A stretch of 64,000 nt of DNA from Chloroflexota bacterium (GTDB lineage: Bacteria > Chloroflexota > Anaerolineae > UBA7937 > B3-Chlor). Below the pieces are notes generated by a model. The model had not been told where the DNA came from, made no database searches, and was given only the letters and a program-made list of their open reading frames with translations. Position numbers and translations under genes: made by a program. Positions 43,508 through 48,509 of the stretch are shown here, piece by piece; the stretch's first letter is position 1; each line of letters begins with the position of its first letter. The DNA is taken from contig JAUWLF010000010.1 in NCBI GenBank assembly GCA_030613785.1, positions 2,028 to 66,027 on the forward strand, written 5' to 3'.

Positions 43508-44641
43508 CTACTGCCTTCCAAGTACCGACTCCAGCACCGAAAGGAGATAGTCGATCTCCTCCTCTGTATTGAAGAAGTGTGGCGAGAATCGAAGTTCGTT
43601 CCCCGGGTTGATCGAGGCAACGATGCCGTGGTCGTTCAGAACCTGCTCTACCTTCTCCTCGTCATCAACCGCACAGCTCACGATTCCACTCCGTGGCCCA
43701 GCGGGGGTGAGCATCCTGAAACCTAGGTCGTTCAATCCTCTCCAGGTCTTCGCACTAAGCCGCAGCACCTGTTCTTCTATCCTGTCCATCCCAATGCTAT
43801 TGATGTACCCCAAAGCAGCCCTCAACTCGTATGAGCCCTGGAAGTGAACAGTCGCGGTTTCGAACTTCCTGGCACTCCTGTGGAACTCCCGCGGATAGAG
43901 ATGTGCGTCGTCCGCCCACGTCGTCACCTGGAGGAATCCCCCAAAGAGCGGGTCAAGTTGAGGCAGCAGTTCTTCCTTGACATAGAAGAAGGCCAACCCC
44001 ATGGGACCAAGCAGCCACTTGTAGGTACCAGAGGCGAGGAAATCAATTCCGTGTCTCTTGACATCCACTTGAATGGCCCCCACAGCCTGGATGCCATCCA
44101 CGTGCAGATAGGCACCGTGGGCATGGGCGAGGTCAGCCAAACCCTTGACGTCGTACACGTAACCGTTGCGGTGGGAGACGTAGCTTATGCTGATGACCTT
44201 GGTCCTGCTATCCACAGCTCGCTCGAAATCGGCAAGCGTGACCGCGCCATCCGTGTTCTTCACAACTCGGTTCTCGACGCCTCTGCTCCTCTCCAGGTTG
44301 AGCCACACCACCGCATTTGACGGGAAGCTCAAATCATCCCACACCACGTTATCCCCTGGCTCCAGGTCAAGCGAGGTGGCGACGATGTTAGTCCCTTCGG
44401 TCGTGTTGCTGGTGATGGCAATCTCGCTGGGCTTGGCATTTATGAGTTCTGCAATTGTCGCCCGCACCTCATCGAGCACTTCTAGCCAGTCCCTCACACG
44501 CCCTGCGACACCTCGACTGCGCCTCTCGAGGAAATCCTTACCCGCCTCCACCACAGGTAGCGGATATGGACCATCGTAGGCGGTGTCCAGGTAGGTTAGT
44601 TCGCTCGTCACTGGGAAATTGGAACGTACCGTCGAATTCAC
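43508..44641 (-). CDS. class V aminotransferase / cysteine desulfurase-like PLP enzyme
   Basis: TYLDTAY...ISYVSHRNG...LHVDGIQAVG...ASGTYKWLLGPMG (PLP-Lys). The GTG at 44641 follows AGGAGG; the ORF track start is 44689. Confidence 0.85.
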   Translation of the reverse strand: MNSTVRSNFPVTSELTYLDTAYDGPYPLPVVEAGKDFLERRSRGVAGRVRDWLEVLDEVRATIAELINAKPSEIAITSNTTEGTNIVATSLDLEPGDNVVWDDLSFPSNAVVWLNLERSRGVENRVVKNTDGAVTLADFERAVDSRTKVISISYVSHRNGYVYDVKGLADLAHAHGAYLHVDGIQAVGAIQVDVKRHGIDFLASGTYKWLLGPMGLAFFYVKEELLPQLDPLFGGFLQVTTWADDAHLYPREFHRSARKFETATVHFQGSYELRAALGYINSIGMDRIEEQVLRLSAKTWRGLNDLGFRMLTPAGPRSGIVSCAVDDEEKVEQVLNDHGIVASINPGNELRFSPHFFNTEEEIDYLLSVLESVLGRQ

Positions 44642-44879
44642 AAGGCCTCCTGACTGATTCTCCCAAATTGCATCAGTGTCGCACCCCATTCACGGCTCTC
44701 GCCACAGCCTAACAGTCTAGCACCTGTCCAATATTGTGTCAACCCATGCTTGCCAATGTGCCTGGTGAGGATATGCAAGAAAGCCAGCAGCGACACTGCA
44801 AATCCCACCCTCCGCTGGATCTGTAATCCAGTGGCAGCCCAGCCTCCAGAAGCGTTTTTCAACACCCTCCCCGTGCGCT

Positions 44880-44908
44880 TTGACTTCTGGGCCGAGCTGT
44901 GCTAGAAT
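44880..44908 (+). promoter_or_regulatory. promoter TTGACT-17-TAGAAT upstream of the ECF operon leader
   Basis: Hexamers are at 44880-44885 and 44903-44908 with a 17-nt spacer. Confidence 0.5.
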
Positions 44909-44914
44909 ACAATG

Positions 44915-45076
44915 GCTGGGGACCGCAATGTCGGCCCTGAGCTCAGTTCATTTACATCCAATGCTCGCAGTCGCTTGGATCTTCAGGACCGAGACGGCAT
45001 TTGAGCCAAGAAGACGACTAGACACAGGTCGTTTTGGACGTCGAAGCCTCTCTGGTTGCTCCTGAGAGGCTTTTTG
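44915..45076 (+). promoter_or_regulatory. structured ~160-nt leader ending in an intrinsic terminator (riboswitch/attenuator or sRNA candidate)
   Basis: Hand-folded hairpins are GGGaCCG-caatgt-CGGCCC, ATCCAA-13 nt-TTGGAT, ACGAC-9 nt-GTCGT, and then the terminator. I found no match to the TPP, FMN, cobalamin, THF or preQ1 cores. Confidence 0.4.
45044..45076 (+). terminator. intrinsic terminator in the 5' leader, 32 nt upstream of ecfA1
   Basis: AAGCCTCTC, an 11-nt loop, GAGAGGCTT running into TTTTTGTATT. Confidence 0.6.
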
Positions 45077-45107
45077 TATTGCTCGCAACTGTCGGACACA
45101 ACATGTC

Positions 45108-45959
45108 GTGATGATCAGAATAGAGAACCTGCACCACGCCTATGACATTGGCCAGCCCAACGCGGTGGTGGCCCTACGGGGCATTGACCTGCTGATCAGA
45201 GAAGGCGAATACGTCGTCATCATCGGCCGAAACGGCTCAGGGAAGTCCACCCTGGCCAGGCACCTCAACGCCCTGCTGTTGCCCACCGAGGGCGATGTGT
45301 GGATCAACGACATCAACACGAAGGATGCCCGACACCTGAGAGAGATTCGCCACACAGTGGGCATGGTCTTTCAGGTGCCCGACAACCAATTGGTCGCTAC
45401 GGTGGTTGAGGAGGACGTTGCCTTCGGGCCGGAGAACATGGGGCTGCCCCACGCAGAGTTGAGGGAGCGAGTGGACGAGGCGTTGCGCCTGGTGGGTATG
45501 ACCCCTTATCGTACGAGGCCCCCACACATGCTGTCCGCAGGCCAGAAGCAGCGGGTAGCCATTGCAGGTATCATGGCTATGCAACCCAGGTGTCTGGTCC
45601 TCGACGAGGCTACGGCCATGTTGGACCCTCGGGGACGACGGGAGGTGCTGGATACCGTACGAGAACTTCATGGAAACGGCATCACCGTTCTGACCATCAC
45701 CCACTTCATGTCTGAAGCAGTGGAGGGCAATAGGGTCATCGTCATGGATCAGGGACGCATCGCCATGGATGGCCCTCCCCGGGAGATTTTCAGCCAGACA
45801 GAGAAGCTGCGAGACCTCGGATTAGACGTCCCCCCTCTGACTCAACTGGCCCAGCGACTGCACCGGCGCCACGCAGCCTTCTCAGGCTCCTTGCTCACCG
45901 TGGACGAGATAGTGGAGGAGCTGTGTCGCCTTCCCCAACCGGTCGAGGTAGTCGCATGA
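45108..45959 (+). CDS. ecfA1: energy-coupling factor transporter ATPase EcfA1
   Basis: GRNGSGKST, LSAGQKQRVAIAG, LVLDEAT, and the ECF-type C-terminal region. Confidence 0.9.
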   Translation: MMIRIENLHHAYDIGQPNAVVALRGIDLLIREGEYVVIIGRNGSGKSTLARHLNALLLPTEGDVWINDINTKDARHLREIRHTVGMVFQVPDNQLVATVVEEDVAFGPENMGLPHAELRERVDEALRLVGMTPYRTRPPHMLSAGQKQRVAIAGIMAMQPRCLVLDEATAMLDPRGRREVLDTVRELHGNGITVLTITHFMSEAVEGNRVIVMDQGRIAMDGPPREIFSQTEKLRDLGLDVPPLTQLAQRLHRRHAAFSGSLLTVDEIVEELCRLPQPVEVVA

Positions 45960-46840
45960 GAACCATAGTGAAGGTGCAAGACCTCCACCATACCTACCTC
46001 CCAGGCACCCCCTTCGAAGCGATTTCCCTGCGAGGAGTGGACGTGGATGTTGTCGAGGGCCAGATTGTGGCCCTCATCGGCCCCACGGGCTCGGGCAAGT
46101 CCACATTGATTCAGCATTTCAACGCCTTGATAAGGCCGCAAAGGGGCAAGGTCATCATTGACGGCCACGATCTGAGCAACGGAAATCTGGACGTGAAAGC
46201 CCTCCGCCGCGACGTGGGTATGGTGTTCCAGACCCCCGAGCAGCAGTTGTTCGAGCAGTACGTGGGCGACGACATCGCCTTTGGCCCCCGCAACTTCGGG
46301 TTTGACGGCACGGAGGTGCGGCGGCGGGTCAGAAAGGCCATGGAAATGGTAGGCTTGGGCTTCGAGGAGTTCAAGGATCGCCTCACCTTCTCCCTCAGCG
46401 GGGGCGAGATGCGCAAGGTGGCTATCGCGGGAGTGCTGGCCCTGGAACCAAAGATCCTGATCTTCGACGAGCCAACCTGTGGATTGGACCCGGGCACTTC
46501 CAGAGAGTTCCTCTGCAGGATAAGGGAACTTCACGACAACCAGGGAGTCACCATCATCCTCGTCTCTCACAACATGGAAGACGTGGCCCAACTGGCGGAC
46601 AGGATCTACGTGCTCGTGGACGGAGAGACCGTGCTGGACGGAACTCCCCGGCAGATATTCTCCCAGCCCCAATCGCTGAGAGGCTATGACCTGGATGTCC
46701 CTCAAGCAACCCAGGTGATGCACGGCCTGCGCAGCCGCGGGAGGGAAGTGAGGAGCGACATATTGACCGTATGCGAAGCCGAGGAGGAGATCTGTCGGTG
46801 TTTCGGCTTCGCTGAGGGAGGAGGCACAGGGGTGACATGA
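45956..46840 (+). CDS. ecfA2: energy-coupling factor transporter ATPase EcfA2
   Basis: GPTGSGKST, LSGGEMRKVAIAG and LIFDEPT. ATGA overlap with ecfA1. Confidence 0.9.
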   Translation: MRTIVKVQDLHHTYLPGTPFEAISLRGVDVDVVEGQIVALIGPTGSGKSTLIQHFNALIRPQRGKVIIDGHDLSNGNLDVKALRRDVGMVFQTPEQQLFEQYVGDDIAFGPRNFGFDGTEVRRRVRKAMEMVGLGFEEFKDRLTFSLSGGEMRKVAIAGVLALEPKILIFDEPTCGLDPGTSREFLCRIRELHDNQGVTIILVSHNMEDVAQLADRIYVLVDGETVLDGTPRQIFSQPQSLRGYDLDVPQATQVMHGLRSRGREVRSDILTVCEAEEEICRCFGFAEGGGTGVT

Positions 46841-47748
46841 GCGAGATCAGCGCTTTCCGTCACGTCACCATCGGCCAGTACTTGCCTTACGGTTCTCTGG
46901 TCCACCGCTTCGACCCACGCGCCAAGCTCGTCATGTTTACCCTGCTGGTCGCCACGGTGACCTTTGCCGACTCCTACACCGCGAGCCTTCTCTTACTCGC
47001 AGTCCTCTTGGGCATCACCCATCTGTCTCGCGTGCCACTGCGATATGCGTTGCAAGGGCTGCGCCCCGCACTGCCCTGGATCGCCATCTTCGCCACGTTG
47101 CAGCTCCTCTTCTACAAAGGCCAGGCTGGAGGACAGGAGTGTCAGATCCTCTGGAGTTGGGGGTTCATAGACATCACCACTTGCAGCGTGAGGCTGGTAG
47201 CCTTGATGGTTCCTCGCTTGTTGGAGTTCATGATCCTCATCAGCCTCCTGACCTTGACCACCAGCACCACCGAGCTGACTCACGGCCTCGAGAGGCTGCT
47301 GAGCCCCCTCAAGCGGCTGAGATTCCCTGCCCACGAGCTGGCACTGGTGTTCACCATCGCCCTGCGCTTTGCGCCAACCTTCGCCCAAGAACTGGAGAAG
47401 ATCATGAAGGCTCAGGCTTCACGAGGGGCGGACTTCGGCGAGCAGGGTAGGCTGGGCTTTGTGCGGAGAACGCGCAACACGTTGCCTCTGATGGTGCCGC
47501 TATTTATCAGCGCCTTGCGACGGGCCGAGGACTTGAGCCTGGCCATGGAGGCTCGAGGCTACATGGGCGGCAGCGGACGGACGAGTTTCGTTCAGTTGAA
47601 GGCCGCTCCTCAGGACTACGTAGCCGTCGTCTTGGTCTGTTGCTTCTGCGCCTTCATTCTGCTCTACAATTTCGCAACCTTTGATGAACTAGTTATGGGC
47701 ACCCTCGGCAATCTCACGAGGGTCGCCTTTTCTTCTGTCGGACACTAA
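46837..47748 (+). CDS. ecfT: energy-coupling factor transporter transmembrane component EcfT
   Basis: Polytopic protein. LVHRFDPRAKL and the conserved ARG-containing coupling helices (MKAQASRGADF, AMEARGY). ATGA overlap with ecfA2. Confidence 0.9.
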   Translation: MSEISAFRHVTIGQYLPYGSLVHRFDPRAKLVMFTLLVATVTFADSYTASLLLLAVLLGITHLSRVPLRYALQGLRPALPWIAIFATLQLLFYKGQAGGQECQILWSWGFIDITTCSVRLVALMVPRLLEFMILISLLTLTTSTTELTHGLERLLSPLKRLRFPAHELALVFTIALRFAPTFAQELEKIMKAQASRGADFGEQGRLGFVRRTRNTLPLMVPLFISALRRAEDLSLAMEARGYMGGSGRTSFVQLKAAPQDYVAVVLVCCFCAFILLYNFATFDELVMGTLGNLTRVAFSSVGH

Positions 47749-47780: not shown

Positions 47781-48509
47781 GTGGAAAGTAGTGGGACGCG
47801 CAGCGTGGTGCGCAAAATCGTCGTCGCCGGCGTGCTGGGAGCGATCATCGCTCTGCTCGGGTATCTCGGGCCTGCTGGTCCGGGGTTCATTCCCGTGCCT
47901 ACACCAGCGCAGCATGCCACCACCCTCCACGTGCCGGTCATCATCGGGGCCATCTTGGAGGGTCCCATTGTGGGGCTGGTGCTGGGACTGATGTTCGGCA
48001 TCTTTAGCTGGATTCAGGCCGGCATGCTCGGGGTCGTGATGTTCCAGGACCCCCTGGTCGCCATCCTGCCTCGCCTCTTCATAGGCGTCACCGCCTGGGC
48101 CGCGTACGCGGCCTTCAAGAGGACCGGCAAAAACGCAGCCTTGGCCCTGGCTGGATGCCTGGTGGTGATTTGCGGCGTCTTCGTCTACTGGGTGATCGGT
48201 GTCAACATGCTCCTGGGAGGGGTGATCGGGGTGGCACTGCTGGGTCTCATCGCCGGGTTCGTCTACCTGGCGCTCAAGGAGAACACGGAATTGCAGGCAC
48301 TGATACTCGCGGCGGCAGTGGGCACACTGACCAACACCATCTTGGTGCTGACCATGCTGGTGGTACGCGGCTATCTGCCACCCGAGGCTGCCCTGATCGC
48401 CGGCGTCACCAACGGTATCCCAGAGGTAATCGTGGCCTGCATCATCGTGGTGGCGGTAGTGGGCGCCTGGAAGGGAGTCGAAACCAGCAGAGCCGGGTCC
48501 ACTGTCTGA
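47781..48509 (+). CDS. ECF transporter S (substrate-capture) component, substrate unknown
   Basis: The GTG start is 6 nt after AAAGGAG. It has 6 or more TM helices and lies immediately after ecfT. Confidence 0.75.
   Translation: MESSGTRSVVRKIVVAGVLGAIIALLGYLGPAGPGFIPVPTPAQHATTLHVPVIIGAILEGPIVGLVLGLMFGIFSWIQAGMLGVVMFQDPLVAILPRLFIGVTAWAAYAAFKRTGKNAALALAGCLVVICGVFVYWVIGVNMLLGGVIGVALLGLIAGFVYLALKENTELQALILAAAVGTLTNTILVLTMLVVRGYLPPEAALIAGVTNGIPEVIVACIIVVAVVGAWKGVETSRAGSTV

Follow-up and report, generated by a model that had tools for sequence, protein, structure and literature searches.

The pan motif, described by Weinberg et al. (2010, Genome Biol 11:R31, PMC2864571), is a stem broken by two conserved bulged adenosines, and it occurs mostly in tandem. 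In Chloroflexi, Firmicutes and delta-proteobacteria, it was located ahead of operons for panB, panC or aspartate decarboxylase, and its discoverers favoured a dimeric protein as the partner of the RNA, with no binding claimed (Weinberg et al. 2010, PMC2864571). A literature search found no paper naming the effector of the motif, no later work on its function and no validated riboswitch or RNA regulator for vitamin B5 or CoA. A pan RNA is also present in B. subtilis. Two other types of small-hairpin regulator offer a comparison. In the RAT hairpins of the CAT-domain antiterminators (LicT, SacY, BglG), bulged or internal-loop adenosines are read by a protein dimer, and this reading decides between terminator and read-through. 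The RAT overlaps its own terminator, and protein binding prevents termination. Guanidine-II (mini-ykkC) RNA consists of two very small tandem hairpins, so simple that the sensing of a metabolite seemed unlikely, yet it turned out to be a riboswitch, with recognition via conserved tetraloops.

Comparison with Rfam shows that the leader RNA of an ECF transporter operon in the window (the whole 64-kb stretch of DNA that was analyzed) is a slightly divergent copy of the catalogued pan motif joined to a transcription terminator (Table 1). The Rfam pan model RF01749 matches 44914–45001 over all 92 model positions with a score of 30.2 bits (E = 0.0028), and every modelled pair in this match is canonical. 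The match was obtained in E-value mode on 551 nt and lies below the gathering cut-off of 36.2 bits, which sets the window leader apart from the copies accepted by Rfam. Because the window copy scores just under this cut-off, a scan of the whole 64-kb window at gathering thresholds matched no Rfam family. Weak matches to mir-67 and snoR118 in the same 551-nt search belong to eukaryotic families and were rejected as chance matches. Hairpin 2 (CGCUUGGAUC...GACCGAGACGG) resembles both the Rfam consensus and a GACCGAGA-type row of the original alignment, and, as in the described motif, two tandem hairpins with bulged adenosines are located in the 5' leader of pantothenate-related genes. In structure and context, the element agrees with the definition of the pan motif; it falls short in the numerical cut-off alone. 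Unlike the motif as described in 2010, which was reported from panB, panC and aspartate decarboxylase operons only, the window leader precedes an ECF uptake operon. It therefore adds a new copy to a known motif that is still an orphan, and its uptake context is absent from the 2010 description.

Table 1 Features of the pan leader, its operon and the divergent neighbor (window coordinates).
Feature	Position	Strand	Basis or remark
Class-V aminotransferase, divergent upstream neighbor	43508–44689	−	
Sigma-70-type promoter	44880–44908	+	10/12 consensus positions; conserved in same-family leaders
Pan hairpin 1	44914–44943	+	RF01749 alignment; seven compensatory pairs across 26 relatives
Pan hairpin 2	44963–45006 (core 44970–44998)	+	RF01749 alignment; core almost invariant in 26 sequences
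Strand B, 3' arm of pan hairpin 2, GACCGAGACGGC	44987–44998	+	Pairs with the 5' arm of hairpin 2 or the 5' arm of the terminator
Third hairpin (P3)	45011–45035	+	−8.8 kcal/mol (predicted); sits between pan motif and terminator
Strand C, terminator 5' arm	45045–45055 (pairing region to 45057)	+	
Intrinsic terminator	45046–45077	+	Stem 45046–45070, loop 45056–45060, U-tract 45071–45077
ecfA1, ECF transporter ATPase	45111–45959	+	TIGR04520, 365.4 bits (cut-off 315)
ecfA2, second ECF ATPase	45923–46840	+	TIGR04521, 341.8 bits (cut-off 330)
ecfT, transmembrane coupling component	46837–47748	+	PF02361 (CbiQ), 139.2 bits
ECF S component, probably PanT	47781–48509	+	PF12822, 89.1 bits

The two pan hairpins stand in tandem (44914–44943 and 44970–44998) and are separated by a variable linker. 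Hairpin 1 is built from an outer 3-bp stem, a bulged adenosine on the 3' side (A44940), a 5-bp box, a bulged adenosine on the 5' side (A44922) and 2–3 apical base pairs capped by a variable loop. In hairpin 2, the bulged residues are A44979 and A44994, and a central wobble is formed by U44976 and G44991. All four adenosines coincide with bulges of the model, and 26 relatives conserve them. The 5-bp box of both hairpins is closed by C-G and G-C pairs (alignment pairs 6–32, 10–28, 100–138 and 104–134). As a result, each box strand reads C-N-N-N-G followed by the bulged A, and the boxes acquire a two-fold pseudo-symmetry. Relative to the pan motif as catalogued, the window's family has two additions: hairpin 2 is lengthened by 5 bp, and one more hairpin stands ahead of the terminator. 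The extension, in which GCUCG (44963–44967) pairs with UGAGC (45002–45006), is invariant in 11 same-family leaders. The extra hairpin, P3, is variable in sequence among relatives, with conservation limited to its flanks, CCAAGAAGA and GGUCCUUUUGGAC.

An alignment of 26 related leaders was made, and a covariance model was built from it. The sequence-only reading had proposed a test for covariation among orthologous leaders, and the alignment shows it for hairpin 1, which covaries freely: seven of its pairs are changed on both sides (e.g., GGGG/CCCC versus ACCG/CGGU). Almost no variation is seen in the core of hairpin 2 (CGCUUGG-A-UC ... GA-CCGAG-A-CGG), and covariation in this hairpin is limited to the apical stem. 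A core that does not vary says nothing for or against its structure.

Downstream of the leader, the ecfA1-ecfA2-ecfT-S operon proposed from the sequence is recovered gene by gene with models TIGR04520, TIGR04521, PF02361 and PF12822, and two ATPases, a T component and an S component are encoded together in the manner of a group-I-style ECF transporter. The start of ecfA1 is the conserved ATG at 45111 (ATGATC aligns in all orthologues); the listed open reading frame begins at GTG 45108. The tail of the terminator thus ends 30–33 nt 5' of the gene, in agreement with the 32 nt given originally. The TIGR04521 match starts at residue 16 of the ecfA2 product, and the true start of ecfA2 may be slightly downstream of 45923.

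The S component bears on what the operon transports. With a profile of seven sequences, its only significant PDB matches are 4rfs_S (E = 6.4e-8) and 6zg3_C (E = 5.9e-7), which we take to be the PanT chains of two Lactobacillus ECF-PanT structures, their deposited molecule names being without PanT. A comparison with the NCBIfam models gave no match for this protein. Based on the weak similarity (E ~1e-7) and the genomic context, the S component is probably PanT and specific for pantothenate. The four-part EcfA-EcfA'-EcfT-S architecture is shared with the Lactobacillus ECF-PanT transporters (PDB IDs: 4RFS and 6ZG3), from which the window's system differs in its low similarity (E = 6e-8 with the profile), in an insertion of ~54 residues in the S component and in the placement of all four genes in one dedicated operon. 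S components encoded directly after the pan motif in other genomes are 35–40% identical to that of the window. The sequence-only reading had regarded the substrate as unknown. Its specificity is indeed still tentative, but the structural matches are to PanT only, and relatives carry the same RNA in front of panB, panD and coaX.

The ~54-residue insertion of the S component is hydrophobic (48144–48306) and long enough for two extra membrane helices. The ~197-residue PanT-like S components encoded immediately after the pan motif at three loci of other Anaerolineae lack it, and it is common to three close relatives.

The window comes from an uncultured member of Chloroflexota, class Anaerolineae, to judge from proteins closely related to its S component. 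Neither panB, panC nor panD was found in the window's genome (a 95% complete assembly). The gene for the type III pantothenate kinase, coaX, is present and is split over two contig ends (C33:2–391 and C29:8137–8496). In its simplest reading, this gene content suggests that the organism is a vitamin B5 auxotroph that imports pantothenate via the ecfA1-ecfA2-ecfT-S operon. Six genomes of the same family carry the pan RNA before ecfA and panB elsewhere, with no pan match at panB and a single match per genome (RF01749 at E ≤ 1; for one of them, G002, our own model at E ≤ 0.01). In the window's family, the pan RNA thus seems to control uptake and not synthesis. Since panB is retained in these motif-bearing relatives, the link between the RNA and auxotrophy is not strict, and a rule by which the RNA stands before ECF genes only where panB is absent does not hold strictly, given the six genomes that have both.

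The distribution of the motif across the class gives the same context on a larger scale. The 26-sequence covariance model has no second match in the 64-kb window. Of 151 genomes sampled across the class, 79 have a match, in nearly every case a single one, and seven further MAGs have one at the equivalent site 5' of the orthologous operon. When 87 non-redundant leaders were classified by their first downstream genes, ECF operons were the commonest target (48 leaders; ecfA is the first gene in 42 and the S component in 6), followed by panB (16, one of them behind a DUF2520 gene), an SBP_bac_5 binding protein (11), a PhnD-like binding protein (5), panD with a DUF2520 (PanG-like) reductase (4), coaX (2) and an S58 peptidase (1). 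DUF2520 is the PanG ketopantoate reductase family. All 87 leaders are located directly upstream of, and on the same strand as, one of these gene types, and none precedes any other gene. The motif is therefore found where the pan motif is expected, in the 5' leader of pantothenate-related operons: a PanT-like operon here, and panB, panD, PanG-like and coaX genes in relatives. Judged by gene order, the pan leaders mark a coherent pantothenate/CoA regulon in Anaerolineae. In this class, the element appears tied mainly to pantothenate uptake (ECF-PanT) rather than to synthesis, including in a seemingly auxotrophic genome.

The regulon also gives functional leads. The SBP_bac_5 and PhnD-like proteins and the S58 (DmpA/BapA-type) peptidase are candidates for unrecognised systems that take up or release pantothenate or one of its precursors (beta-alanine, for example), and so candidate genes for the acquisition of vitamin B5 or its precursors.

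At the 5' end of the leader, the −35 box TTGACT (44880–44885) and the −10 box TAGAAT (44903–44908) are separated by a 17-nt spacer, with a TG at 44900–44901. The predicted transcription start, at ~44911–44915, falls at the foot of hairpin 1. In a consensus scan of 44000–46000, two promoter-like sites were found in 2 kb versus 0.8 expected, which is weak evidence alone; 44880–44908 is the sole plus-strand site. The conserved placement of TTGAC.-17-TA.AAT, 6–7 nt 5' of hairpin 1 in the aligned same-family leaders whose contig reaches there, is stronger evidence for a promoter than the scan. Between this promoter and ecfA1 lies a structured leader of ~165 nt. In computed folding, a 170-nt leader reaches −61.8 kcal/mol (z = −2.36; 3 of 200 shuffles fold equally well) and contains four predicted hairpins (44914–44943, 44963–45006, 45011–45035 and 45046–45070).

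The last of these hairpins, with the stem GCCUCUC.GG / CC.GAGAGGC (−16.4 kcal/mol, predicted) followed by UUUUUGU, combines the G+C-rich hairpin and U-tract of an intrinsic terminator. The consensus terminator scan did not list the 45046–45077 hairpin, probably because a U-U mismatch pushes the loop of the perfect stem beyond 8 nt. A scan permitting one mismatch recovers it, and folding agrees. The terminator with its U-tract is conserved in most orthologous leaders, its basal 7 bp are invariant in 11 same-family leaders, and an intrinsic terminator is found 3' of the pan motif in nearly all of 48 leaders examined. The near-consensus promoter, the hairpin-rich leader and the rho-independent terminator, all first noticed from the sequence, are each upheld by these results. 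So is the remark that no upstream plus-strand gene needs a terminator here, since the upstream neighbor is a class-V aminotransferase gene on the minus strand.

The pan RNA and this terminator probably constitute a transcription attenuator for a dedicated ECF pantothenate importer, which would work as an antiterminator-based off-switch. An alternative antiterminator pairing with 45044–45052 had been suggested as something to look for, and one was found: strand B, the 3' arm of pan hairpin 2 (44987–44998), is complementary to the 5' arm of the terminator (45045–45057, strand C), with a predicted duplex energy of −12.9 to −13.6 kcal/mol. For pairing with strand B, this terminator arm ranks third among 162 terminator-like hairpins of the genome (mean −6.1, sd 2.3). 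When the transcript is cut before 45061, the predicted antiterminator fold is favored over the hairpin 2 fold (−50.1 versus −45.8 kcal/mol), with a pair probability of 0.98. In the full leader, hairpin 2 together with the terminator is predicted at −61.3 kcal/mol versus −55.6 kcal/mol for the alternative.

In the mechanism proposed from these folds, strand B would, without effector, capture strand C before the polymerase has completed the terminator. Once this B:C antiterminator has formed, the polymerase would read through into the operon. An effector that reports vitamin B5 or CoA sufficiency would clamp the pan hairpins. Strand C would then be left free, the terminator would form and uptake would be shut off. 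From this layout, we infer a kinetically controlled off-switch. The two alternative pairing partners of hairpin 2 would also explain why its core is invariant while hairpin 1 covaries. Conserved complementarity links hairpin 2 to the terminator; the off-switch model built on it is concrete and offers a practical assay for finding the effector.

Evidence from other leaders is in partial agreement with this model. Across operon contexts, the 5' arms of the terminators recur as GCC-Y-CUCGG-like sequences, a near complement of the hairpin 2 arm CCGAGA-C-GGC. For 31 leaders outside the window's family, the median B:C pairing is −9.6 kcal/mol versus a background of −5.8 kcal/mol (Mann-Whitney p = 2e-11, a value that overstates the support because related sequences are not independent), and the excess complementarity could stem partly from common descent. 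In the alignment, 95% of the cells of the B:C pairing are paired and no pair is changed on both sides; both strands are invariant, which accounts for the lack of covariation. When truncated transcripts of 48 leaders were folded, the antiterminator was obtained in ~40%, and hairpin 2 was kept in about half. Folding thus supports the antiterminator model, though not uniformly across leaders.

The opposite polarity, an ON switch in which effector binding at the hairpins would block termination (a protein activating uptake under B5/CoA starvation is one example), is an unlikely reading of the same folds. The complete leader is predicted to favor the terminator by default (−61.3 kcal/mol), so that a default-off state with induced antitermination is conceivable, and in three leaders of one family of the class (L016, L036 and L040) a U-tailed hairpin directly overlaps the 3' arm of hairpin 2. 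In the window, however, hairpin 2 and the terminator are 47 nt apart and do not overlap, and a stabilized hairpin 2 is predicted to free the 5' arm of the terminator. Moreover, the sharing of one element by biosynthesis, kinase and uptake genes fits end-product repression, as the off-switch would provide.

Whether the promoter-to-terminator unit belongs to the operon at all was also considered. The sequence-only reading had allowed either a premature-termination element or a separate sRNA. The first part stands, as a cis-acting premature-termination element for the ECF operon, with both the terminator and the competing pairing present; the second is disfavored. An independent, trans-acting sRNA of ~165 nt, with the operon transcribed from its own promoter, would suit the discrete transcript that promoter and terminator bound, and terminated riboswitch leaders can build up, at times with a function in trans. 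Nevertheless, this reading is very improbable: only 30–33 nt separate the U-tract from the start codon, a scan found no promoter-like site there, and the leaders, 87 of 87, lie on the same strand as, and directly upstream of, a small set of functionally linked genes.

The suggestion that the leader might belong to an unrecognised ligand class was not borne out. A new riboswitch class unrelated to catalogued motifs would agree with the lack of any Rfam family reaching its gathering score in the window and with an effector that is not known, but we regard it as extremely improbable. The sub-threshold RF01749 match (30.2 bits) runs end to end with both bulged adenosines of both hairpins present, the neighboring genes repeat the pantothenate context described in 2010, and there are homologues above the threshold. 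RF01749 matches were obtained at E ≤ 1 in 25 of 41 related genomes, mostly once per genome; in two of the 41, the match is above the cut-off (39.9 and 37.1 bits). These two copies are also scored by the 26-sequence covariance model, which gives the window 78.9 bits. The Rfam cut-off thus misses most pan copies in Anaerolineae. A match to a known Rfam class had been named beforehand as the outcome that would argue against novelty, and the RF01749 match is, in essence, that outcome. Finally, a leader-peptide (ribosome-mediated) attenuator has a negligible chance of being correct: a 61-codon open frame with a TTG start (44880–45065) overlaps the leader, but it begins inside the promoter, upstream of the predicted transcription start, orthologous leaders have indels that are not multiples of three, conservation tracks RNA pairing and not codons, and no conserved short ORF with a ribosome-binding site was seen across orthologues.

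For the effector, a dimeric RNA-binding protein is the candidate that we favor, with modest confidence. A small molecule of the CoA pathway is possible on a more tentative footing, and an effector of some other kind is unlikely. Like RAT, the pan hairpins are short and contain bulged adenosines; in both pan hairpins, the box is two-fold pseudo-symmetric. Unlike RAT, the pan hairpin stands apart from the terminator, and binding is predicted to promote termination. We know of no CAT-like partner for the pan motif. The two-fold pseudo-symmetry of the boxes suits a homodimer and is also compatible with a small ligand. The pan motif shares with guanidine-II two very small tandem hairpins; in the latter the loops are recognized, whereas in pan it is the bulged adenosines and the stem sequence that are conserved, and the loops are variable. 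By analogy, the guanidine-II precedent would leave room for a small-molecule reading of pan.

In a more specific form of this small-molecule reading, which we hold to be rather doubtful, the pan RNA would be a metabolite-sensing riboswitch whose pseudo-symmetric bulged-A boxes read an intermediate of the CoA pathway, e.g., 4'-phosphopantothenate, 4'-phosphopantetheine or dephospho-CoA. The presence of coaX in the regulon of relatives would make a signal downstream of pantothenate kinase likelier than pantothenate itself. If the riboswitch reading were true, vitamin B5 or coenzyme A would have its first riboswitch in this RNA, and the ligand could be identified with the Anaerolineae leaders, which offer a clean terminator/antiterminator platform and belong to a regulon that includes coaX.

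Two minor observations concern related ECF genes. A second PF12822 S-component gene is present in the window's genome (C108:9467–9829; locus L069, ORF 1270–2070), with no pan match and no other Rfam match near it. If this S component relies on the ECF module of the operon described here, uptake of its substrate would also be under pan control. At L016, L036 and L040, the two ECF ATPases are apparently fused into a single frame (at least 524 codons, with EcfA1 matched twice), and a second strong terminator comes after the U-tailed hairpin, which overlaps pan hairpin 2 in its 3' arm. Regulation at these three loci may follow another logic than in the window.
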